This document shows positions 1,850 to 22,575 of a DNA stretch of 50,158 nucleotides, piece by piece (position 1 is the stretch's first letter; every line of letters begins with the position of its first letter). A program made the translations under genes and the position numbers. Under the pieces are notes generated by a model that made no database searches, was not told the DNA's origin, and was given only the letters and a program-made list of their open reading frames with translations. The DNA is from Escherichia phage LHE71. The stretch lies in the sequence record OP455115; one strand, given 5' to 3'.

Positions 1850-1864
1850 TAGCAATTAGTGCTA
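1850..1864. promoter_or_regulatory. Palindromic intergenic motif instance (TAGCAATTAGTGCTA)
   Basis: 15-bp inverted repeat; on the minus strand followed after 22 nt by TATAGT and a conserved leader. Confidence 0.45.
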
Positions 1865-2434
1865 TTTATTGATGAACGTAGCGGCTATGTGCTGAGCGGT
1901 AATTTCTGGATGACCTTCTATAGCAAAGAAATCACACTCCTGATAACCATTAACCCCGATCATATCGTCCAGATAAATATAATCACGGCTGTCGTTGTCA
2001 AAGTTGCAGCCTTTGCGATGGATTCGGCATAGCTTGACCTGGATATCACCTTCAATCATCTGCAATACCTCATCCTTGAATCCTCCATCTGTAAATACCG
2101 ACAGAGAATCTGACTCTTTTACCTTGCATTCCGCTCGCATACCGAAAAATCGATTGCCAAATTGCGGCTTGATTACCTCCTCGCTAATCCAGATCATAAA
2201 TTGCCGTGGGCTTTTACCGTTCAGGATAGATGCTGGCTCTTCTTTATATCGACGGTCCTCATACAGGAACATGAAATACTCGAAATTAGCCTCACCCAAT
2301 ATTGCTCGTGCAATCTCAAACATTGGCGCTTTGAAGCTTCGTAGCGCTACGTGATCGTAAGTGTCAGCCAGGATGCATCCGATAGTGTCTTTTCCAGCGC
2401 CTGGTGCACCGTTTAAAATGATAGCTGTTTTCAT
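1862..2434 (-). CDS. P-loop kinase, deoxynucleoside monophosphate kinase-like
   Basis: Walker A GAPGAGKDT near N-terminus and LNGKSP motif; resembles phage dNMP kinases from memory. Confidence 0.55.
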   Translation of the reverse strand: MKTAIILNGAPGAGKDTIGCILADTYDHVALRSFKAPMFEIARAILGEANFEYFMFLYEDRRYKEEPASILNGKSPRQFMIWISEEVIKPQFGNRFFGMRAECKVKESDSLSVFTDGGFKDEVLQMIEGDIQVKLCRIHRKGCNFDNDSRDYIYLDDMIGVNGYQECDFFAIEGHPEITAQHIAATFINK

Positions 2435-2435
2435 G

Positions 2436-2546
2436 TTAGTATCTCCCTAAAAATAATTTTGCCACATTGATGATGGTGTGATTGATGATTAACAGTATAA
2501 TAACCGTTAATACCGGATGCGCTGCAATAAATTCGTACATGTTCAT
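2436..2546 (-). CDS. Small hydrophobic peptide (36 aa)
   Basis: ORF absent from the supplied track (below its size cutoff); ATGA overlap with the HAD gene stop; predicted single TM segment. Confidence 0.35.
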   Translation of the reverse strand: MNMYEFIAAHPVLTVIILLIINHTIINVAKLFLGRY

Positions 2547-3076
2547 TCATCTACTCCGTGAGATTTTAAATGATCGTGGACGTTATCGCCATAGTCAACT
2601 ACAGCATACGTAGTTATTCCAAGCGATCGGAATAATGGAATAATTTGCGGTGAGTCATCCCAAGCTGCCAGAATGTTATCAACGCCGATCGCGCGCACCG
2701 CCTCTTCTTTCATTACCGTGTCTTTGCGGTTGTCGGTATGCGGCCTCATGACTAAGTAATCATATCTTGCGCCGTGATGCTTAAGCCATAACTCAGATGC
2801 GTAACGCACCTCATCGCTTCTCCCGGTTAAAATGATCACATGATAACCAGCTGCAAACATAGAGTTCATCACTTCAATCGTACTCTGGATTGGGTTATCA
2901 AATATTGCCGCGCGGTTAAACTCAGACCAGCTTTCAGTCAAGTGCAAATCCTTTGTCGGTAGCAGGTGAAGTCGCTTTGAGCCATCACTCAGCGTTCCGT
3001 CAAAGTCAAAGATTGCTACGCGGCGCGTGCCGAGAAACAGGTTGATAGTCTGACCCCAAATGGTGACTTTATCCAT
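2543..3076 (-). CDS. HAD-superfamily phosphatase
   Basis: HAD motif I FDFDGTL (DxDxT) near N-terminus; 177 aa. Confidence 0.6.
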   Translation of the reverse strand: MDKVTIWGQTINLFLGTRRVAIFDFDGTLSDGSKRLHLLPTKDLHLTESWSEFNRAAIFDNPIQSTIEVMNSMFAAGYHVIILTGRSDEVRYASELWLKHHGARYDYLVMRPHTDNRKDTVMKEEAVRAIGVDNILAAWDDSPQIIPLFRSLGITTYAVVDYGDNVHDHLKSHGVDE

Positions 3077-3279: not shown

Positions 3280-3346
3280 ATTGATTCCTCTGATTGGTTG
3301 CTTAACTCAACGAAGGGCATTCTATCAAATGCCCTTGAGCAAGTTT

Positions 3347-3361
3347 TAGCAATTCGTGTTA
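3347..3361. promoter_or_regulatory. Palindromic intergenic motif instance (TAGCAATTCGTGTTA)
   Basis: Inverted repeat; 22 nt to TAGAAT with TGn extension on the minus strand. Confidence 0.45.
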
Positions 3362-3808
3362 TTACCAGTAATCGACCTCGTAGTCGGCCCAAGCGTCAAA
3401 ATCACTTTGGCAGAATGTGCCGCTATAATTTTCCATAATTTCATCGATCAGGAAGTAGCATGATTCGCCGTTACGATAGAAGTATGAATCTGCAACGTTG
3501 CGCGCCCAGCGCCCGGCGTCCTTCTTACTCATCTTCCAGCGCTTCATTGCGATTTTCTTGAATGCACGCACAACACGTTTGCGGATCTTGATATGCTTGT
3601 ACACCGCGTTGCAGCCGTAAGCCATATATTCATTATTACCAATATTCTGCATGATGTACGGATTAACGTCTTTTGACGTAATCATCAGATCGCCATCGCC
3701 GCGACGCGCATCATAAATGCTTGCTGTCATGTAGTGGCCTTTGAACATTCCAATGCCGTGCAGAGTGTATTCATTATTAGGTGTGTCAATGCAAATTAAG
3801 TGTTTCAT
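3362..3808 (-). CDS. Hypothetical protein
   Basis: Start moved to internal Met MKHLICID, which has SD GAGGAA; the longer ORF start lacks an SD. Confidence 0.5.
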   Translation of the reverse strand: MKHLICIDTPNNEYTLHGIGMFKGHYMTASIYDARRGDGDLMITSKDVNPYIMQNIGNNEYMAYGCNAVYKHIKIRKRVVRAFKKIAMKRWKMSKKDAGRWARNVADSYFYRNGESCYFLIDEIMENYSGTFCQSDFDAWADYEVDYW

Positions 3809-3865
3809 GAGTGATTCCTCGTTTGTTGGTGTAGGGGAATCATAGCGCATTCCCCTTGATAGGTT

Positions 3866-4084
3866 TTAGCAATTCGTGCTATTCGTTTTAATAGTGATGC
3901 AAAAATAATTTTTTAAGCACGTCACCACGCGCGCTGAATCGACTTGTGGAAGCCTTAAAATTTCATGGACCAGTTGCACTGGCGACACCTCAGATTTGTA
4001 GTAGTGTGCGATTCTGGAGGTGTTTGGGCGCATTCCTTCCACTGCGTCGCGTGCTGCATCTTCTGCTGTCATGATAGTAGCCAT
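3866..4084 (-). CDS. Hypothetical protein
   Basis: 72-aa ORF with AAGGGTG SD; its 3' end runs into the palindromic motif. Confidence 0.4.
   Translation of the reverse strand: MATIMTAEDAARDAVEGMRPNTSRIAHYYKSEVSPVQLVHEILRLPQVDSARVVTCLKNYFCITIKTNSTNC
3867..3881. promoter_or_regulatory. Palindromic intergenic motif instance (TAGCAATTCGTGCTA)
   Basis: Inverted repeat; 22 nt to TATGAT on the minus strand, with -10 inside a hairpin loop. Confidence 0.45.
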
Positions 4085-4232: not shown

Positions 4233-4871
4233 TTACATGATGAAAAGCAGCGAAATAGCAGCGACCAGGAGAACAAGCGAGGCGGCAAGATTGAATAAAT
4301 CCACCTTCTCTTTAAACTTCAGCGCTGGCTTGTGGTCAACTTCCGACGGCTTGACGTTATGGATCTTGTTAGCTGCAATCTTGCCGTTAACGCAGAAAGT
4401 GCTCTTACGCTTCTTGCCGAACGTTGCGAACTTAGTGCCGCCGCTGTTCCAACGAAGACCTTCGCCGTTGTGGGTTACGGTAGCAATGCGGTGACGGCCC
4501 GTGTCGTCGGTCAGCGCTACAGTGTGCTTTGCGTGCTCAGTAGGCACGTCGTAGATTTTGCCAACGGTAAATTTTTTGGTGTTATCACTGATACATTCAA
4601 ATTTCATAAATTTTACCTCTTTATTATGCAGTTGGTTGATTGCTTCGATTACGTCGTTAAATTTAACACCATCCACGATTCGATGGAAGATATATTTTGA
4701 ACTACCGCCATAAGGCAGGAAAATTTCCTGATATTCGTGACGCCTGACAACGTTCACATTGCATCCGTTCTCATCAGTAATGATAAAACTATCATCATTT
4801 ACTCGCGCACCTTTGTAAGTTTTGCCCCACTTGAAACCAGATCCGCTACTCGATACACATTCAAATTTCAT
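4233..4871 (-). CDS. Membrane-anchored protein with two tandem copies of the small paralogous domain
   Basis: Internal repeat MKFEC(V/I)S...GK(T/I)Y twice; C-terminal hydrophobic anchor LAASLVLLVAAISLLFIM. Confidence 0.55.
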   Translation of the reverse strand: MKFECVSSSGSGFKWGKTYKGARVNDDSFIITDENGCNVNVVRRHEYQEIFLPYGGSSKYIFHRIVDGVKFNDVIEAINQLHNKEVKFMKFECISDNTKKFTVGKIYDVPTEHAKHTVALTDDTGRHRIATVTHNGEGLRWNSGGTKFATFGKKRKSTFCVNGKIAANKIHNVKPSEVDHKPALKFKEKVDLFNLAASLVLLVAAISLLFIM

Positions 4872-5155
4872 GGTTTAATGATCCTGTAAGGTTTGATTGA
4901 TAACATCACGTATTGCGTGAAGTCGCATTCTTGATCGTCATAGCCGCGATTGATGTATGGCGTCACGTCGGTAACATCGGACACCCTGGCATGTACTTCC
5001 CATCCGGTAAACTCACCGCGATCGAACTCGCATAGCTCAAGGATATCTCCAAGCTGGAATTTTCGGTCATTGATGCGGAACTCCGCTGTTTTGTTCCCGT
5101 TCATTACACCGATGAAATGTACCGGGGCGATTTTTAACTTATGAGTTTTGCTCAT
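4868..5155 (-). CDS. ASCH/DUF3850-like PUA-fold protein
   Basis: 95 aa; HKLKI...F...G.KT.E.R.NDR.FQ.GD.L pattern typical of DUF3850 from memory. Confidence 0.5.
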   Translation of the reverse strand: MSKTHKLKIAPVHFIGVMNGNKTAEFRINDRKFQLGDILELCEFDRGEFTGWEVHARVSDVTDVTPYINRGYDDQECDFTQYVMLSIKPYRIIKP

Positions 5156-5591: not shown

Positions 5592-5643
5592 TTCCTCTTC
5601 GTTGTTGATATGGCAATCATAGCTGACTACCCGATTTATTGTT

Positions 5644-5658
5644 TAGCAATTCGTGCTA
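5644..5658. promoter_or_regulatory. Palindromic intergenic motif instance (TAGCAATTCGTGCTA)
   Basis: Inverted repeat; 22 nt to TATGAT on the minus strand. Confidence 0.45.
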
Positions 5659-5722
5659 TTTAATAACTTCTTGATGCGATTGCGATAAAACTGCATTATG
5701 TGCTCATTGTGCCAATTGCTCA

Positions 5723-6220
5723 TTATTTCACCTCGTAGCGTACAAGCGTTCCGCGCTTAATGCTGATTTCACCTGATACCGTCTTGTTCTTAAATCCGCC
5801 GTAATGCAACAGGAGAATCACCACATCATCGTGTACCTCAATAGTTTTAGGAGTGGCGGTAATATCGATCCATGATTCGCTATCAAGTTGGACACCCTTT
5901 AGCGTCGCGCTCAATGGCATGTTCTCGATCTGAGTGCACTGTAGCGATGGCTTGATTTCTGGCTTTGCGCTATGAAAGATGGCTCGGCCAGCTTTCCAAC
6001 CAGCTTTCCAGCCAGGACCAACATACTCAACATAATATGGAAGAGATGGGATGTTATCAGGGTTGTGATTGTTATGAAGCTCAATGAGATTGCCAACGAT
6101 AGACGGATGGCACTCATTGAATGACGAATCTGTTGCACGGTCTTTGCTATGGCAGGTTATTTTCCCGCAGCTAATAGTGTTAAAAACCACAGGGAATTTA
6201 ATCTCGTTTAATTTCAACAT
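5723..6220 (-). CDS. Hypothetical Cys/His-rich protein
   Basis: 165-aa ORF next to the DpdA-like/YhhQ-like pair; N-terminal C-x4-CH...CH cluster; no family recognised. Confidence 0.5.
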   Translation of the reverse strand: MLKLNEIKFPVVFNTISCGKITCHSKDRATDSSFNECHPSIVGNLIELHNNHNPDNIPSLPYYVEYVGPGWKAGWKAGRAIFHSAKPEIKPSLQCTQIENMPLSATLKGVQLDSESWIDITATPKTIEVHDDVVILLLHYGGFKNKTVSGEISIKRGTLVRYEVK

Positions 6221-6287
6221 AATGATTTCCTCTTATTGGTTGCTCTGCTTCAATAAGGACACTATAACAAATGTCCTTGCGGAAGGT

Positions 6288-7115
6288 TTAGCAATTCGTG
6301 CTATTCCACTCGCTAATTTTCGGAGGCTTTACAGATTCAATGCAGTTCTTCAATATCGCACACCTTTCGGCAAGTATGTCTGATTTGCTGCCACCTTTGG
6401 AAAGGCATTGATCTACAGCTTGCTTAACGTCATCAGTATCAATCCACTTATCCTTGTGGATACTCCTCCTGCAAGCCTCAATTGTCACTACTTTATTTAT
6501 GGCAAGGTACTTAGGAACGTTGCAAGCCAGGTTAGTGCTATCTGCTGAGTTTAGAGGGTAGTTACCTAAAACTCTTCCATCAAGCATCCTTAATCCATGC
6601 AGCTTCACGTCAACCTGTGATTCTTTAACTGCTGAGAAAGCCTCGCTTATTCTTTGCTTCCACTTAGCGGATCTGACTGTTGCAAATTCACCAGAAGAAC
6701 CCATGCATACCCAATCCCATTTTTCACACAGACTTATCAGCCTACTGATTGGCTCATGCATATGCCACACCGGGGCGGCCTTGCTTTTAAGATCTGACGG
6801 CAGTTGAGATATGAGCTTATCATTATCCTCCGCGCTTCCTGTTATATCATCAGGGATAACAAAGAATCTCAATTTAGGATTATCAAACCAGTCAGGAAGA
6901 AAGTTGAAATAAAACTCCCTCCAGTCCTGAACCTTTCCGCTCTTCCACTTTGAGAATGCCCCATTATCTATGCATACCGTCTCAGCCACATCGAAGGCTA
7001 GCTTTATCTGGTCTGGTCGCTCAAAGGATACGAACGCACCACTTCCACGGTGCGCAATTCGTGCAATCCTTCCCTTATCTCCCCATATTGGAGATCCGTG
7101 AAAGTGAATTGTCAT
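6288..7115 (-). CDS. Alpha/beta enzyme, candidate tRNA-guanine-transglycosylase-like DNA-modification enzyme (DpdA-like)
   Basis: 275 aa with alternating strand/helix pattern; IDNGAF resembles the TGT DSGGFQ motif; ATGA-coupled to the upstream YhhQ-like gene. Function is inference. Confidence 0.4.
   Translation of the reverse strand: MTIHFHGSPIWGDKGRIARIAHRGSGAFVSFERPDQIKLAFDVAETVCIDNGAFSKWKSGKVQDWREFYFNFLPDWFDNPKLRFFVIPDDITGSAEDNDKLISQLPSDLKSKAAPVWHMHEPISRLISLCEKWDWVCMGSSGEFATVRSAKWKQRISEAFSAVKESQVDVKLHGLRMLDGRVLGNYPLNSADSTNLACNVPKYLAINKVVTIEACRRSIHKDKWIDTDDVKQAVDQCLSKGGSKSDILAERCAILKNCIESVKPPKISEWNSTNC
6289..6303. promoter_or_regulatory. Palindromic intergenic motif instance (TAGCAATTCGTGCTA)
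   Basis: Inverted repeat; 22 nt to TGtTATAGT (extended -10) inside a hairpin loop on the minus strand. Confidence 0.45.
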
Positions 7116-7591
7116 AGTTTAAATTTCCTCATGATAGCTATGATTATAAATGCGCCAACTGTCTTAGCTGCGAATTGTGCCAATGAAACATCAATCATTA
7201 CCGTTCCGAATGCTATCATCGGGAATGCTATTGAGTCAATCGCAGCCGACACTGTATTTGCGGGAATGGATTTACTGTAGAAATCACCACGCTTGAATTT
7301 GAACGTTATAGCGCTGCCTGTGCCAGCCAGCATTACCGATGACACTGAGGCGATCGCTATCATCCCTGCGTCTGGATCTATCAAAACGGTAGCAATACCT
7401 GCTGAAAGGCAAGCAATCATAGAATGCCAGAAACCAAATTTGTGCTGTATCTTATCCCTGATAACCATATCTGCCGATATGATTACGAGCGCATTAATCG
7501 GAGTGGCCCACACACCGAAATATGCAACCGACAGGTTTGCTGAAACATACAGCAAAACGAACAATGCAACCATTACTGATAACTTACGCAT
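7112..7591 (-). CDS. Multi-pass membrane protein, YhhQ/queuosine-precursor-transporter-like
   Basis: 159 aa, several TM helices; motifs SANL...W, SAD, NTVSAAIDSIAF..IAFG line up with recalled E. coli YhhQ motifs. Confidence 0.45.
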   Translation of the reverse strand: MRKLSVMVALFVLLYVSANLSVAYFGVWATPINALVIISADMVIRDKIQHKFGFWHSMIACLSAGIATVLIDPDAGMIAIASVSSVMLAGTGSAITFKFKRGDFYSKSIPANTVSAAIDSIAFPMIAFGTVMIDVSLAQFAAKTVGAFIIIAIMRKFKL

Positions 7592-7712
7592 ACTGGCTCT
7601 CCTGAGAAAATTGGTATAATTTGGATATTCGGTCTTACCTGCCTGATTCTGTTTACGGTTGATTCGTCACTTAGAGGATAAAAAACACCATTTACTAGCC
7701 ACCCTATCCTAG

Positions 7713-7883
7713 TCATTCGTCAGACTCTCCAATATATTTAGCCTCTTTCCATTGAGAGTATGCATCTTGCTCGCTGAACCCGTAGCCAGTAAAGCCACCA
7801 CCTTGACACATGAATCGCTTAAATTTCATGATTCCTTTGTAGCTGTAGCCACGGTCGGTGATTTTGCATTCTTCGTTAATCAT
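7713..7883 (-). CDS. Small hypothetical protein (56 aa)
   Basis: ORF absent from the supplied track (below its size cutoff); SD GAGGAAA upstream of ATG; directly downstream of a promoter-like module. Confidence 0.4.
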   Translation of the reverse strand: MINEECKITDRGYSYKGIMKFKRFMCQGGGFTGYGFSEQDAYSQWKEAKYIGESDE

Positions 7884-7942
7884 CTTCGTTTCCTCGCTCG
7901 TTGTCGATGGGATAACTATACCAGGTTATCCCGATCCAGTTT

Positions 7943-7957
7943 TAACAAAAAGTGCTA
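7943..7957. promoter_or_regulatory. Palindromic intergenic motif instance (TAACAAAAAGTGCTA)
   Basis: Inverted repeat; 22 nt to TGgTATAGT then leader TTATCCCATCGACAACGAG on the minus strand. Confidence 0.45.
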
Positions 7958-8278
7958 CTCTACGATGAACTCAACATTTACCGGGGTCCACTCTTCCATC
8001 CTGGGGATTGAGAGATTTTCCACCTCGCACATATTCCCCTCAACCTTGACAAGTTTTAATTTTTGGTTATTCACCTTCTGCATTCTCATCACGAGGTATC
8101 TTGCTTTCTCGTTTATGGTGCGTTTATCCACGCCTTTTGTGAAGTACATGGGGCCAACAGTGTCGAGGTTTATTTTGATTGACCGCTTACCAATCAGTGC
8201 ATCAGCTATTACCTGAATGTTTGCGTTCTGCTTTGCGTATGCGTAGCGGCCCTCTTCTGTTGTTACGTGTTCAAACAT
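7955..8278 (-). CDS. Hypothetical protein
   Basis: Start set at ATG 8278, which has SD GGAGGA 6 nt upstream. Confidence 0.5.
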   Translation of the reverse strand: MFEHVTTEEGRYAYAKQNANIQVIADALIGKRSIKINLDTVGPMYFTKGVDKRTINEKARYLVMRMQKVNNQKLKLVKVEGNMCEVENLSIPRMEEWTPVNVEFIVE

Positions 8279-9716: not shown

Positions 9717-10423
9717 ATGAAATTAATCTGGTCACTATTTGACGGTTCAGGTCTTGCTGGTCATGAGCTGGCAAAGCAAGGTCACAAGGTGATGTGCTTC
9801 AACTTTGACGGAGCCGATCACGGTGATTACGCAAAGTACAATGCCAGAGTCGAGCATCCGAACATTGAGTATGTGAACGTCTTCATTGATGAGAAGTTCG
9901 AACGTGATGCTATCGCTGGCGTGTACGGAAAGCCGGATTTTATTATGGCCTTCCCGCCGTGCACTGACCTGGCTGTTAGTGCCGCCGCCGCCTCTTTGCC
10001 AGCAAGCGTGAACGTGATCCGTTATTCCAGGAGAAGGCTGTTGCCACCGCAAGGATTGCTGCGAACATTGGCGAGGCGCTTGGTGTTACTTACATCATTG
10101 AGAATCCGGTGAGCGTCCTGTCGTCTGCGTGGAGAAAACCAAATCACTCCTTCAATCCCTGGGAGTATGGCGGCTATCTTCCCGAGAATGACGTGCATCC
10201 CTGGTTCCCGATGTATATTGCGCCGCGAGATGCTTACCCGAAGAAGACTTGTCTGTGGACCTCTGACGATTTTGTCATGCCAAAAAGGAAACCTGTAAGA
10301 CTGCCTGACGGGTACTCTGCACAGCAAAACAAGCTGGGCGGCAAGTCTGCCAAAACGAAGCTGATACGATCCCTGTCGCCGCGTGGATTTTTCAAAGCGA
10401 TCGCAAATAGCACTTTTTGTTAA
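9717..10423 (+). CDS. DNA (cytosine-5)-methyltransferase-like gene interrupted by a -1 frameshift at a GCC repeat
   Basis: N-terminal frame has motif I-like LFDGSGLAG and motif IV-like FPPCTDLAVS; downstream frame has RDPLF and IIENPV (motif V/VI-like); frames switch within 9980..9992. Confidence 0.4.
10408..10422. promoter_or_regulatory. Palindromic motif of promoter module
   Basis: TAGCACTTTTTGTTA, then 22 nt, then CATAAT (10445..10450) and leader TACCTCATCGAAACGAG. Confidence 0.5.
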
Positions 10424-10482
10424 AACTCGAACGATATGATTTGGCATAATTACCTCATCGAAACGAGATTGAGGAAAACAAA

Positions 10483-10668
10483 ATGGCACGTCGCATCACT
10501 AAAGACCTTAAAGTTCTGAACAAAGAAAACGTAGTTAAAATTCTGGTTATTTGGGGTTACAACGAAGAGTCAGCAAAGCAGAAGGTCGAGGCTGGTTATG
10601 ACCTGGCTATCAAGGCAATGCCTAACGACGACGCTAAAGGTATTGCAAATTACGTATCTTTCTTCTAA
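10483..10668 (+). CDS. Hypothetical protein
   Basis: 61-aa ORF with SD GAGGAAAA. Confidence 0.5.
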   Translation: MARRITKDLKVLNKENVVKILVIWGYNEESAKQKVEAGYDLAIKAMPNDDAKGIANYVSFF

Positions 10669-10683
10669 TTAACAGGCCAGTAA

Positions 10684-10869
10684 ATGAAAACAAAATTAGT
10701 TCATAAATCAGAAATCAAGATCGGCGATACCGTGATTCACAACGGAGAGCTTAAAACTGTTGGCAAGGAGTCAATAACCAACGATGAATTTATGGGTTTG
10801 TTGTTGTTCGGGGACTCCTATCGACTTGGTTACAAAATGGTTGAGCTTGTTGAAGATGTAAAATTCTAA
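10684..10869 (+). CDS. Hypothetical protein
   Basis: 61-aa ORF; KOW-like GDTVIHNGELKTVG pattern. Confidence 0.5.
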   Translation: MKTKLVHKSEIKIGDTVIHNGELKTVGKESITNDEFMGLLLFGDSYRLGYKMVELVEDVKF

Positions 10870-10870
10870 A

Positions 10871-10885
10871 TAGCACTTTTTGCTA
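10871..10885. promoter_or_regulatory. Palindromic motif of promoter module
   Basis: TAGCACTTTTTGCTA, then 22 nt, then CATAGT inside a GGGAG/CTCCC hairpin, then conserved leader. Confidence 0.5.
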
Positions 10886-10944
10886 AACGAAAATGCGGGA
10901 GGGCTGCCATAGTTCTCCCATCAACAGAAAACGAGGCAATCACC

Positions 10945-18639: not shown

Positions 18640-18882
18640 TAAGATCGTGTCGGATTTAAGTTCTTCTACGTCTTTCTGAATGATTGAAGGCCAACGCTCG
18701 ATATATTCATTTTTTATCTCATCGAAAGACATGTCAAGAGAACTAGTGAACTCCCACAGATCGCAACCAATAACATCCTGAGTCAATCCGTTTTGCTCCA
18801 TAATTTCGCAGCACGTAGCGCGATAAAGAAGCCATAACCCTTGATCAGTTAATTTAACAGGAAACATTTTTTCGCTCATCAT
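18631..18882 (-). CDS. Hypothetical protein
   Basis: 83-aa ORF, ATGA coupled to Dam gene. Confidence 0.5.
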   Translation of the reverse strand: MMSEKMFPVKLTDQGLWLLYRATCCEIMEQNGLTQDVIGCDLWEFTSSLDMSFDEIKNEYIERWPSIIQKDVEELKSDTILQH

Positions 18883-19592
18883 ACTTTCCTCACCTTTGCT
18901 CGTTTGTTTTTAACGGAAGGACAAATGCTTGTGATTGGGATGTAGTGAGTCTGTTGCACCTCACCTTCTTTAAGCTCGCGCATAATAAAAATCACCGAAC
19001 CTTTGTTATTACCATCTACAGCCTTTCCAGTTTCACCGGATATGAAAGCCAGACGACCGGATCGTGCGTATTCATTGCCGTCAATATCCTCAGTCAAATC
19101 AGCTTCAATCCAGATGATTTCAGCCGCGTGCTGTCGAGCCTCAGTAAACCACGCCGTCGAGTTATCGGCAGGTAAAAGAATATCGATCTGGTTGTTGTGC
19201 TCCATTTGCTCAATCGCTTTCTTGACGAATATATCAGGTCGACTGTAAGGAGGATTTAACCATACGTGCTTATTTTTACCCCACCAACGTTTTAAGCAGT
19301 TTGTTTCCTGGGAATAAAACTTCTCGCAAACTTTATTTTCTTCGCTTGCCGCAGCGTCGAGATCATATTTTCCGTAGCGCCCCTCAAGGTATGCGATAAC
19401 CTCGCGTGGAGTTGACCATAAATCACGAACAACATCCGGCGTATTTGTTCCCTTGTATCGACGCCCTGAAATCTCTTTGCAGGTTGGAGTTTTCAATGCT
19501 TGATAATAACCTCCTGATGCTATTGCTTCGCGAGTGAATGAGCAACCAGTTTCTGCAAAGTCGATTGTTTCGATATCATCAAAGTCTTTCAT
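18879..19592 (-). CDS. DNA N6-adenine methyltransferase (phage Dam-like)
   Basis: Catalytic NPPY motif in WLNPPYSRPDIF; SD AAGAGGA. Confidence 0.7.
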   Translation of the reverse strand: MKDFDDIETIDFAETGCSFTREAIASGGYYQALKTPTCKEISGRRYKGTNTPDVVRDLWSTPREVIAYLEGRYGKYDLDAAASEENKVCEKFYSQETNCLKRWWGKNKHVWLNPPYSRPDIFVKKAIEQMEHNNQIDILLPADNSTAWFTEARQHAAEIIWIEADLTEDIDGNEYARSGRLAFISGETGKAVDGNNKGSVIFIMRELKEGEVQQTHYIPITSICPSVKNKRAKVRKV

Positions 19593-20080: not shown

Positions 20081-20560
20081 TTACACCCCGTGATTTTTAT
20101 GAAAATCAAGCTCTATCTCTGCTGACTTTCTCGCCTTCACTGCATCATCAAAGCTATCCCCTTCATATAACATCTTTTTCCTCTTGTTGCTTTGTATCTG
20201 AGCTACCCATTTCCTTTTCTTTGAGTGCCAGCTTACTCCAGTAACGCCAGATTTGTTATTTGAATATGATGATTTATTTTTCATGTTAACTTGCTTAGTG
20301 ACAAGAAGAAGGTTTTCTATTATGTTGTCAGTCCTGTCGTGATTTATATGGTCTACTTCCATCCCTTCGGGTATTTTTCCGTAGTGCATCTCCCATATTA
20401 TTCTATGAGCATGATACGCTTTCTTGCGCATCATGACTTTCACGTAACCCTCATCACTTATAGTTCCAGCAAGCGTTCCAGCTTGAACTCTATTATTTCT
20501 AGTGACGAGCCAGTAAAGATTACCGTCGCTGTACTTAAGGTATTTTGACCATTCAATCAT
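20081..20560 (-). CDS. HNH homing endonuclease with AP2-like DNA-binding domain
   Basis: HNH core EVDHINHDRTDNIIENL; C-terminal GVSWHSKKRKWVAQI AP2-like segment. Confidence 0.7.
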   Translation of the reverse strand: MIEWSKYLKYSDGNLYWLVTRNNRVQAGTLAGTISDEGYVKVMMRKKAYHAHRIIWEMHYGKIPEGMEVDHINHDRTDNIIENLLLVTKQVNMKNKSSYSNNKSGVTGVSWHSKKRKWVAQIQSNKRKKMLYEGDSFDDAVKARKSAEIELDFHKNHGV

Positions 20561-22575
20561 TCCGGGATACCCTCCATACCGAAGTCTTTGCGTGAAATAA
20601 TATCTTCTTTCTTCTGGTTGCGCCTATGAGTAACGCGTACCGGATGCGCTATATGATGAGAGTATTGCACGATCTTGATGGCGTTCTTCATCCCGATAAA
20701 GTAGCGACGCATTTTAGGATCTGATACGTGAGGTAATACTCCTTTCGTTTTCCATAGCGTACCGCAAATCTTAGAGTCGGACTCAGGAAAGAATTTTTCA
20801 TACGCCTTGAACTCATCACCGTCATCATTAATAAGTGTGTATTTGTATATCACACCTTTTTGATTTTTGGTTAACGTAACTTCAAAATTCTTGACCTCGT
20901 ACCAGTCATTCTTAGTGTACGCCTTACCGGATAACTTAAGGTTAGGATCGACAAGAGAAACATCGCAACAGCGACAGACTCTGGCCACAACGTCATTCTC
21001 CGCACCACACCCTTTAACAAGGATTTTTCCTGTACGCTCATCAACCTGGTCCTCGCAAATCTGAGAAGTCCAGAAGTGATCGCAGCGCTCGCCGTCGATA
21101 ACGTTAACGCATCTGCGAGCGTAGAAGCTATTTACGCAACCACACTTCGGACACGTTTTCGGGTCTTTTCCGTTTTCAAAACGCTTTTGGAATTGTGCCT
21201 GCTCAAGTATCGGATCGAAATAAAGCTGCCCCAGTTCATCCATCGTACCTGCAAAATCCCATACCAGATGGTCTTGCTTAACCATACCCTCAGCAACCTG
21301 CCATGATTTAAGCAGTCGCATACCCCTACCTAAAAGCTGAATTAGCAAGGTGAGAGATCCTATCTTGCGAAGTATTACGCTGAAATCCCAATTTGGAACG
21401 TTAACGCCAGTAGTTAGCGCCATGACCTGAAAGGTATATTTAATTTTCCCGGCCCTCACATCGTCAAGAATTTTCTTGCGCGTTTTCGTGTCTGTATCGC
21501 CAGTAATAATTGCATAGGTGCTTCCTGGTGGTAGTGCCGCCGCCGCCTCTTTGCAGTGACGCACCCCGGCGCACGTGATTAGAACTGCGTTACGCTCTTC
21601 AGCCTTTTTGGCAACCATTTGCATGATTCGCTGAGTAAGAGATTTATCATGAAGGATCTCATCCTCCATTGCCTTCATATCTTTCTCTGCAAAGTCCTGT
21701 ACCCCATCCTCGCTTGAGGCCTTAAATTTATCAAGATCGTAGTGAACTCCGTCCGTAGAACCGAATATAGTCGGAACGACTGAGCCAAACTCAATAAGGT
21801 AGTTGGTGTCTATATCAGTAACGCGCTCACGCCAGAATCCTAACGCCTTTGGATTCTCAACAAGAATTGGAACTACGCCCCTAAATTCAGATCCAGTCAT
21901 ACCAAATATTCTAAGGTCGTGACCGTGAACCTCTTTACAGCGGCGCATCATCTCCATAATTACGATCGTGTACTGACTGCGTTTAGTTCCAAGCAAAGGT
22001 TTTCCATCATTACCAATCAGGGGAATATCTCCGTCCATGATAATTTTCCCTTTCTCGCCCCTCATCTGTTCCATCGTTTCCTTGCCTTCGATGGCTTGCG
22101 CAAGGTCTTCCCAATCTACCTGATGACATTCATCAATCCCGATTACGTGCGGGACAAAATCAGCCAACTCATTATTGAGTCCATTTGCAACAGTACCCTC
22201 AGAGCCGACCACGATCGGGAAGTAGCAAGACTTGATTCCAAGTGACGCTGAGAATATAGAGTTAGTTACGCCGAAGTTGTCGATCTCCTCACTATCCTGA
22301 TCGACAATCTCACCCTGTCGTGCCAGCACGAGCATTTTCAAGCCCATTTTTTGACACTGCTTTGCAACCATAGCAAAAATGATGGTCTTACCCGCAGACA
22401 CTGACGCTTTAACAAAGAATGGATGCTCGTAATTTGATAGGCGTTTTGCGATCTCAGCATAAGCAACAACCTGGTACGGATACGGAACGATCTCACCAAC
22501 AGTGAATCGTTCTTGAGTTCGTTTTATATAGTCCTCGCCAAGTAATGCGATTTGCTTTTTGATGTTAATTGTCAC
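20557..22575 (-). CDS. Superfamily-2 ATP-dependent helicase
   Basis: Walker A SVSAGKT, motif II DECH, C-terminal Cys cluster; GTG start with AAGGA SD. Confidence 0.75.
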   Translation of the reverse strand: MTINIKKQIALLGEDYIKRTQERFTVGEIVPYPYQVVAYAEIAKRLSNYEHPFFVKASVSAGKTIIFAMVAKQCQKMGLKMLVLARQGEIVDQDSEEIDNFGVTNSIFSASLGIKSCYFPIVVGSEGTVANGLNNELADFVPHVIGIDECHQVDWEDLAQAIEGKETMEQMRGEKGKIIMDGDIPLIGNDGKPLLGTKRSQYTIVIMEMMRRCKEVHGHDLRIFGMTGSEFRGVVPILVENPKALGFWRERVTDIDTNYLIEFGSVVPTIFGSTDGVHYDLDKFKASSEDGVQDFAEKDMKAMEDEILHDKSLTQRIMQMVAKKAEERNAVLITCAGVRHCKEAAAALPPGSTYAIITGDTDTKTRKKILDDVRAGKIKYTFQVMALTTGVNVPNWDFSVILRKIGSLTLLIQLLGRGMRLLKSWQVAEGMVKQDHLVWDFAGTMDELGQLYFDPILEQAQFQKRFENGKDPKTCPKCGCVNSFYARRCVNVIDGERCDHFWTSQICEDQVDERTGKILVKGCGAENDVVARVCRCCDVSLVDPNLKLSGKAYTKNDWYEVKNFEVTLTKNQKGVIYKYTLINDDGDEFKAYEKFFPESDSKICGTLWKTKGVLPHVSDPKMRRYFIGMKNAIKIVQYSHHIAHPVRVTHRRNQKKEDIISRKDFGMEGIPE

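Follow-up and report, generated by a model that had tools for sequence, protein, structure and literature searches.

Candidate DNA-modification genes in the LHE71 genome

The DNA of Escherichia phage LHE71 (sequence record OP455115) was analyzed for genes that could modify the phage's own DNA. The whole stretch of 50,158 bp, referred to here as the window, is the complete genome of a T1-like siphovirus (Drexlerviridae, Tunavirus-like). In the replication region, its nucleotide identity to Shigella phages S2_02 and Sfin-1 is 92-93%, 319 related phage records match the genome, and no tRNA genes were found in the window. A literature search found no paper on phage LHE71. A first-pass annotation of this DNA had proposed up to three modification functions (a Dam-like N6-adenine methyltransferase, a DpdA-like enzyme, and a C5-methyltransferase), together with a kinase and a HAD phosphatase, and had read them as layered anti-restriction chemistry. 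The open reading frames (ORFs) of Dam, the DpdA-like protein, the kinase, and the phosphatase are present exactly at the coordinates that had been given (18879..19592, 6288..7115, 1862..2434, and 2543..3076, respectively, all on the minus strand). Dam held up, as did the DpdA-like enzyme, which belongs to a phage DpdA-only clade and comes with a transporter-type partner gene. The C5-methyltransferase did not, as the gene is of the Dcm family but frameshifted. The genes on which this assessment turns are the following.

18879..19592, minus strand: Dam, T1-type N6-adenine DNA methyltransferase (GATC), 237 aa, assigned by PF05869, TIGR01712, and identity to the T1 enzyme
6288..7115, minus strand: DpdA-like DNA-guanine transglycosylase, 275 aa, a minimal TGT-fold TIM barrel with candidate catalytic residues Asp50, Asp89, and Asp192
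7112..7591, minus strand: short VUT/YhhQ-family membrane protein, putative 7-deazaguanine-base importer, 159 aa, its stop codon overlapping the DpdA start (ATGA)
9717..9992, plus strand: 5' part of the dcm pseudogene, frame 1, with motif I (FDGSG) and the catalytic motif IV (FPPC, Cys82), ending in an aberrant (GCC)4 patch
9980..10423, plus strand: 3' part of the dcm pseudogene, frame 3, with the ENP motif (Glu128), K175/K176, and the C-terminal half

Dam methyltransferase

The 237-residue protein scored 230.4 bits against PF05869 (E 1.3e-68; cutoff 28.1) and 238.1 bits against TIGR01712, phage_N6A_met (cutoff 97.05). Its catalytic (D/N)PPY motif reads NPPY at residues 113-116, and 233 of its 237 residues are identical to those of T1 Dam (YP_003925.1). 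T1 DNA from a dam- host is still methylated at GATC, and a CRISPR-made deletion of the T1 gene abolishes this methylation; DpnI and MboI assays have been published for T1 Dam (PMC10470545). Judged by its 98% identity to T1 Dam, the LHE71 protein should make GATC-specific N6-methyladenine (m6A). This part of the first-pass annotation is correct and was already known. GATC is not avoided in the window, with 237 sites compared to 222+-14 expected.

What Dam does for the phage is a separate matter. A dam deletion mutant of T1 has a burst size of about 32, compared to about 52 with the gene intact, in hosts that have no relevant restriction system, and its sensitivity to a GATC-targeting Dnd system is unchanged (PMC10470545). 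It is quite possible, from these data, that the main role of the enzyme lies not in anti-restriction but in phage replication, packaging, or gene expression. However, full GATC methylation blocks cleavage of the MboI type, so that protection against that class is certain, and the two roles are not mutually exclusive.

The DpdA-like protein and its putative transporter partner

The DpdA-like protein matched phrog_887 ("queuine tRNA-ribosyltransferase") with an E value of 1.2e-76. Searches of Pfam, NCBIfam, and PDB sequences gave no match, not even with a 45-sequence profile. In tblastn searches of phage genomes it was 95.6% identical only in Tunavirus Lg3, and about 59% identical in Rogunavirinae (e.g., Phleasolo) and in Enterobacter phage Phc. 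The identity was 48% for Pantoea phage MED16 (E 5e-76) and 35% for Salmonella phage 7-11 (E 4e-44). The last two are "DpdA-only" phages, whose virion DNA carries dADG (2'-deoxy-7-amido-7-deazaguanosine) at 0.13% of G for MED16 and 0.02% for 7-11 (PMC8306585; PMC6884629). MED16 DNA has little restriction protection beyond a Dam-dependent resistance (PMC8306585).

The AlphaFold model of the protein (pLDDT 92.8) is an eight-stranded (beta/alpha)8 barrel of the TGT type, and a Foldseek search with this model returned generic TIM barrels only. The 45 homologs share three invariant aspartates, D50 (IDNGAF), D89 (IPDD), and D192 (ADST), each of which is found at the end of a predicted strand (b3, b4, and b8, respectively). 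The motifs around them resemble TDSGGF, FDEC, and FDCV of E. coli Tgt; an hhalign comparison with E. coli Tgt gave nothing. In DpdA, residues D95, D130, and D256, located after b3, b4, and b8, have been assigned as general acid/base, base-recognition residue, and nucleophile (PMC10164549). The three aspartates of the LHE71 protein are placed where these roles are described in DpdA and TGTs, by strand position rather than by residue-level superposition. A structural zinc site, CxCxxC...H, is conserved in bacterial DpdA and TGTs (PMC10164549); the LHE71 protein has no CxCxxC and its family has no invariant Cys.

In a profile search of 1.84 billion proteins, the family amounted to 1203 representatives after clustering at 50%, most of them 220-275 aa, with no TGT of canonical length among the best 150 matches. 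One relative is a fusion of QueD (PF01242) to a DpdA-like protein (P0334), and the homolog in a Caulobacter phage (DMCA) adjoins QueD. Another relative joins a D12-class Dam methylase (PF02086) to a DpdA-like protein (P0250), although this could be a merge of gene calls. By analogy with the DpdA-only phages, the LHE71 enzyme probably exchanges guanine for a 7-deazaguanine in DNA.

The gene that overlaps dpdA on its upstream side, at 7112..7591, had been missed by the first-pass annotation. Its product scored 15.8 bits against Vut_1/PF02592 (E 0.019), below the cutoff of 27.2, and aligned weakly to E. coli YhhQ. Two homologs that match the LHE71 protein with E values of 2e-13 and 1.5e-9 (P0007 and P0008, respectively) align to almost the entire Vut_1 profile, with scores of 37.4 and 39.3 bits, and a third homolog (P0006) was named "queuosine precursor transporter" by its source. 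Hydropathy analysis gave at least 5 hydrophobic segments in the 159 aa, which points to a polytopic membrane protein; E. coli YhhQ is longer, at 221 aa. These comparisons identify the protein as a divergent member of the VUT/YhhQ family (PF02592, COG1738) and, putatively, as an importer of preQ0 or preQ1.

Only 20 phage records encode the VUT-type protein. Its gene adjoins the DpdA-like gene in Lg3, Phc, the Phleasolo group, Pectobacterium phage PEAT2, and Acinetobacter phage AB3P2. On 2 metagenome contigs (L020 and L021) the order of VUT then DpdA and the 4-nucleotide overlap are kept, with both proteins only 40% identical to those of LHE71. On another contig (L019, positions 101-1020; Logan SRR29078258) a VUT homolog overlaps a gene for nucleoside 2-deoxyribosyltransferase (PF05014) and not a DpdA-like gene. 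That pairing suggests that importers of bases are more generally coupled to enzymes that exchange them.

Cassette layout and precursor supply

The VUT-type and DpdA-like genes form a cassette with a small ORF at its head, and a repeated intergenic element lies on either side.

7713..7883, minus strand: orf56, the first ORF of the cassette, 56 aa, conserved with it in Lg3 and in the related assemblies L023, L024, and L025
7898..7970, minus strand: repeated intergenic element (conserved box, variable stem-loop, and ribosome-binding site) upstream of the cassette
6227..6316, minus strand: copy of the repeated intergenic element downstream of the cassette

Positions 5976-7881 of the window have no counterpart in a typical Tunavirus, ISF002. 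Lg3 shares 6287-7957 at 89% identity, and L025 is 99.6% identical across the VUT-DpdA cassette. When E. coli QueC, QueD, QueE, and FolE were used in tblastn searches, nothing below E 0.2 was found in the window. The association of the DpdA-like protein with 7-deazaguanine metabolism comes instead from the overlapping VUT gene in LHE71 and from the QueD fusion and QueD neighbor in relatives. Since LHE71 has the transporter and transglycosylase only, any modification must rely on salvage or on the host pool. In Escherichia phage CAjan, a 7-deazaguanine cluster holds both yhhQ and dpdA, and in folE and queC mutants preQ0 from the host is still incorporated, at a level 12-fold lower (PMC7544227).

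Alternatively, the pair might cause no meaningful modification of phage DNA. The genes could be inactive cargo, or their products could have a different target (tRNA, a nucleoside, or a protein; compare the TGT-like Cap10 of type IV CBASS) or could manipulate the host pool of queuosine precursors. We regard this as unlikely, since MED16 and 7-11, the closest relatives tested, carry dADG in their virion DNA and the 3 candidate catalytic aspartates are invariant across the 45 homologs. The overlapping VUT-DpdA operon has also been kept among widely diverged members, a sign that selection acts on a function of the two together, and relatives of the DpdA-like protein are fused to or adjoin QueD and in one case are fused to a Dam-type methyltransferase.

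Copies of the intergenic element, 50-80 nucleotides long, are present in each of the two divergent early operons, at 1805-1877, 3285-3363, 3832-3883, 5599-5671, 6227-6316, and 7898-7970, and inverted at 10408-10485 and 10867-10926. On the transcribed strand it consists of a box, TAGCAC-N5-TTGCTAAAAC, followed by a stem-loop and then by a ribosome-binding site and start codon. The arms of the stem vary yet stay complementary (GGGATAAC/GTTATCCC, GGGGAAT/ATTCCCC, and GGGCAT/ATGCCC), and the spacing of the element does not fit a standard sigma-70 promoter. The copies that flank the VUT-DpdA cassette may be regulatory units, recombination boundaries for module exchange, or both.

The dcm gene

The first-pass annotation had reported the C5-methyltransferase-like gene as one gene at 9717..10423 on the plus strand. 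This interval is 707 nucleotides, which is not a multiple of 3, and no single frame spans it. Frame 1 opens at ATG 9717, encodes FDGSG and FPPCTD, is lost at the (GCC)4 run at 9981-9992, and ends at a stop codon at 10112. It is frame 3 that carries the true continuation, LFASKRERDPLF...IIENPVS, with a TAG just upstream and its first start codon, GTG 10109, beyond the ENP motif. In an alignment with intact orthologs of 234-243 codons (phages SH2 and EF3-1), LHE71 is two bases longer within a short divergent stretch that immediately follows FPPCTDLAVS. The uninterrupted frame of approximately 234-237 codons expected of the family is lacking in LHE71 owing to this +2 frameshift. LHE71 encodes all three motifs, FDGSG, FPPC (Cys82), and ENP (Glu128), none of which varies among 38 homologs, but ENP is in a different frame from the other two. 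The invariant positions of the family include G10-S11-G12, P80-C82, E128-N129-P130, and K175, among others.

Once its frame was repaired, the protein matched phrog_757 ("DNA methyltransferase") with an E value of 5.6e-80 and had no Pfam or NCBIfam match. The gathering cutoff of PF00145 was not reached by the repaired protein, by the EF3-1 protein, or by P0129, an intact ortholog that is 94% identical. Three relatives with approximately 61-63% identity (P0135, P0137, and P0180) score 24.7-28.5 bits against PF00145 (cutoff 22) across motifs I-IV. The AF2 model of P0129 (pLDDT 90.3) has the C5-methyltransferase fold, and its top 44 PDB matches in Foldseek are catalytic domains of DNMT3A/3B (best E 3.2e-7). 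The family comprises 2826 homologs and is present in 1456 phage records. The repaired protein is 54% identical (E 4e-83) along its full length to the product of the 711-bp gene of Bas06, and the BASEL authors label this family "Dcm-like C5 cytosine methyltransferase".

The activity of this family has been demonstrated in phage K42, a near-identical relative of Bas06. K42 Dcm methylates the multicopy single-stranded DNA (msDNA) of a retron to 5-methylcytosine (m5C), and the CCWGG (Dcm) site of this msDNA is needed for defense (bioRxiv 10.1101/2023.08.16.553469). C82 is catalytic in the K42 enzyme and E128, K175, and K176 are binding residues. K42 Dcm is the trigger of retron Ec86 defense, and in phages that escape, dcm is deleted, has a 1-bp frameshift, or is affected by promoter mutations (bioRxiv 10.1101/2023.08.16.553469).

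The frameshift in LHE71 coincides with a short sequence that is duplicated in the helicase gene.

9977..9999, plus strand: 23-nucleotide patch TAGTGCCGCCGCCGCCTCTTTGC in dcm, replacing the ancestral TAGTG-GTGCGCGACA-CTTTGC, with a gain of 2 nucleotides and a shift of frame
21532..21554, plus strand: probable donor of the patch, within the helicase gene (20557..22575, minus strand) and antisense to its ...KEAAAAL... codons

The patch is identical to the donor site at 23 of 23 positions, and no other stretch around it has an equally long match elsewhere in the genome. The donor site is native to the helicase, as T1 and Lg3 carry the same site with 2-3 mismatches. Twelve helicase-derived nucleotides stand in place of 10 dcm nucleotides, between the microhomologies TAGTG and CTTTGC. 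A 23-nucleotide copy bounded by microhomologies is characteristic of a templated switch or of short-patch conversion, not of a base-calling error. We conclude from the sequence that dcm of LHE71 is a genuine pseudogene and most likely inactive. This duplicate may exemplify how T1-like phages generate null alleles.

The frameshift allele was not found in IMG/VR by an exact scan or among 50,697 phage records by blastn, where 103 of 103 related records are without it. Two ways in which a broken gene might still yield an enzyme were considered and rejected. Programmed -1 frameshifting would need a slippery site of the form X_XXY_YYZ, and there is none in GCCGCCGCCGCC. A split, two-part enzyme is opposed by the TAG just upstream in the target frame and by the lack of a start codon before GTG 10109.

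In an alternative scenario, all three enzymes are active, the break in dcm is an artefact of assembly or consensus calling, and virion DNA carries m6A at GATC, m5C at CCWGG, and 7-deazaguanine. The same VUT-DpdA cassette does occur with an intact dcm and the canonical sequence at the patch in L023 (a contig of 49.7 kb) and L025, so the triple combination exists in nature. The frameshift allele is present in only one deposited genome, and CCWGG is not avoided in the window. However, the patch is not a homopolymer slip but a perfect copy with microhomologies at its bounds, of a kind that errors of base calling or polishing do not yield, and neither a slippery site nor a start codon for a complementing C-terminal half of Dcm is present. 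We consider this scenario improbable.

The CCWGG site (Dcm/EcoRII) is strongly over-represented in the window, with 90 sites compared to 52+-7 in dinucleotide-preserving shuffles, and 0 of 100 shuffles reached 90.

A dcm gene with an in-frame stop (DEKF*LD) is also found in phage vB_EcoS-DELF2 (L002, positions 670-1374), where it is annotated as two "DNA methyltransferase" coding sequences; this is a second, independent natural null allele in a T1-like phage. The T1 and Lg3 genomes have no dcm. Loss of dcm is thus recurrent in the T1-like group, which fits Dcm being costly in some hosts. By analogy with the K42 escapers, selection by retron Ec86 is a plausible cause of the loss.

Kinase, phosphatase, and other genes

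The remaining two genes put forward as part of the modification chemistry lie near the beginning of the window.

1862..2434, minus strand: P-loop dNMP-kinase-like protein, core T1 gene (gp62), with a match to phrog_139
2543..3076, minus strand: HAD phosphatase of the Pnkp phosphatase-domain family, core T1 gene (gp64), 177 aa, with matches to PF25109 and phrog_415

The kinase matched phrog_139, "dNMP kinase" (deoxynucleoside monophosphate kinase), with an E value of 4.3e-45, and its P-loop reads GAPGAGKDT. The phosphatase scored 62.6 bits against PF25109 (E 5.7e-17; cutoff 27.6) and matched phrog_415 with an E value of 1.2e-66. Its DxDxT nucleophile motif is DFDGT at residues 24-28, and it matches only the phosphatase domain of polynucleotide kinase-phosphatase, as the fused 5'-kinase domain of T4 Pnkp is missing. 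The kinase is 96% identical to T1 gp62 and the phosphatase 89% identical to T1 gp64. Because T1 has both genes yet neither dcm nor DpdA, these genes are no evidence for hypermodified nucleotides, and a kinase is not needed for DpdA, which acts on DNA after replication. Recent papers on T1-like phages and TLS treat the kinase and phosphatase genes as part of nucleotide or polynucleotide metabolism. In LHE71 they are core T1 genes for nucleotide or nucleic-acid-end metabolism, unrelated to DNA modification.

A nucleotide-level hypermodification route comparable to the handling of hydroxymethyl-dCMP in T4, where the gp1 dNMP kinase phosphorylates that nucleotide, would suit the phrog_139 match, but it is hardly credible given that both genes are core in T1-like phages whose sole annotated modification enzyme is Dam, that the HAD match is confined to the Pnkp phosphatase domain, and that no base-modifying enzyme (dCMP/dUMP hydroxymethylase or glycosyltransferase) was present among the ORFs scanned.

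PHROG scans of other ORFs of the early and replication modules, not including every small ORF or the late region, found no further modification enzymes. In T1 (L009, 5465-5959) an HNH endonuclease gene (ST63) lies between the phosphatase and kinase genes, whereas LHE71 has only a spacer of 108 nucleotides there (2434-2543); an HNH endonuclease of LHE71 is encoded at 20081..20560 on the minus strand, adjoining the helicase. The early operon also encodes a 95-aa DUF3850/ASCH-like protein (4868..5155, minus strand; PF12961 E 8e-16), which is called "RNA-binding protein" in related RefSeq records.

Proposed mechanism and significance

Taken together, these data give one certain modification (Dam), one probable and probably low-level modification (VUT-DpdA), one lost modification (Dcm), and no nucleotide-level pathway. 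The active layers number at most two, not three, and every component comes from a described family. Two things are new here, namely that a Tunavirus has a VUT-DpdA cassette of the salvage type and that its dcm was knocked out by a templated patch. We favor, with moderate confidence, the reading of LHE71 as a T1-like genome with one active and well-understood methylase (Dam), one probably active accessory cassette, and one dead methylase gene (dcm).

Under this reading, Dam would methylate the GATC adenines of phage DNA, as has been demonstrated for the 98%-identical T1 enzyme. The orf56-VUT-DpdA cassette, whose gene order is established here, would be transcribed early and would work without preQ0 biosynthesis genes. 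The YhhQ-type protein may import a 7-deazaguanine base (preQ0, preQ1, or a relative), and the host preQ0 pool may add to the supply. The minimal TGT-fold enzyme would then swap selected guanines in double-stranded phage DNA for the imported base through an Asp-ribosyl covalent intermediate, as expected of its family. The product, to judge from MED16 and 7-11, would be low-level, sequence-selective dPreQ0/dADG. As to dcm, a gene for a C5 methylase of the CCWGG family appears to have been inactivated by a helicase-derived patch, placed right behind the codon of the catalytic Cys, that causes a +2 frameshift. Its loss would plausibly have been selected, the Dcm family being the trigger of abortive infection by retron Ec86.

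The claim of layered anti-restriction is weaker than it had been stated. The DpdA-only phages MED16 and 7-11 have only 0.02-0.13% of G modified and little restriction protection, deletion of T1 dam cuts burst size even without restriction, and a phage Dcm is a liability in hosts with retron Ec86.

A broader idea is offered tentatively, and we think it doubtful as a whole. The orf56-VUT-DpdA genes could be a self-contained, salvage-only cassette, an importer plus a minimal, zinc-less transglycosylase, with which a virulent T1-like phage marks its DNA from scavenged or host-made precursors and gains environment-dependent protection, and which moves among Drexlerviridae as a module with stem-loop repeats at its ends. 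The dcm gene could have been shed through the helicase patch to evade a methylation-sensing retron, so that one DNA mark was traded for another under opposing defense pressures.

If the VUT-DpdA pair works as proposed, it would be, with two genes and no biosynthesis, the smallest genetic route known that leads to 7-deazaguanine in DNA, and it would sit in one of the best-known groups of lytic coliphages. T1-like phages are commonly seen as having poor protection from restriction, and for that reason the cassette would make the costs and benefits of low-level deazaguanine marks genetically easy to test. The broken dcm is a natural counterpart of the laboratory mutants that escape retron Ec86, with a specific mechanism, short templated conversion between microhomologies. 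For annotation pipelines, LHE71 should not be counted as encoding an active cytosine methylase, and the kinase and HAD genes should not be taken as signs of hypermodification.

Comparison with known systems

The phosphatase of LHE71 shares the DxDGT motif and PF25109 with T4 polynucleotide kinase-phosphatase, but it stands alone, with no fused kinase. The kinase resembles the dNMP kinases of the T4 gp1 and T5 type by its P-loop GAPGAGKDT and its phrog_139 match, and both proteins are known in T1-like phages from sequence only. LHE71 Dam differs from T1 Dam (M.T1) by four substitutions across all 237 residues and is otherwise without notable difference, having the same NPPY motif and the same place adjoining the helicase in the replication module.

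With Dcm of K42 and of Bas06 KarlJaspers (Drexlerviridae), the LHE71 gene shares the minimal, DNMT3-like C5-methyltransferase architecture of approximately 235 aa and residues C82, E128, and K175/K176. Unlike those genes, the LHE71 copy is broken by a templated +2 frameshift after Cys82. Its ancestral specificity for CCWGG is assumed by analogy with K42, and LHE71 Dcm and its closest ortholog both lie below the PF00145 threshold.

Compared to bacterial DpdA (PDB 7UI4) and TGTs, which are 375-413 aa, the 275-aa protein of LHE71 is without the zinc site, the large Ins8 insertion, the DpdB partner, and a sequence match to PF01702. CAjan (Queuovirinae) likewise encodes a homolog of the preQ0 transporter together with a DNA transglycosylase. 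That phage differs in also having FolE, QueD, QueE, and QueC, in having approximately 25-32% of G modified, and in that its yhhQ is dispensable. The nearest characterized DpdA-only phages are MED16 and 7-11 ("DpdA-only" group 3, Hutinet 2019; cluster DpdA/TGT_1, Simoliuniene 2021), which share with LHE71 the lack of genes for preQ0/G+ biosynthesis; MED16, like LHE71, pairs Dam with DpdA. In LHE71, however, dpdA is translationally coupled to a VUT/YhhQ-type gene, MED16 and 7-11 not being among the 20 phage records with that protein, and the host of the cassette is a virulent T1-like virus.

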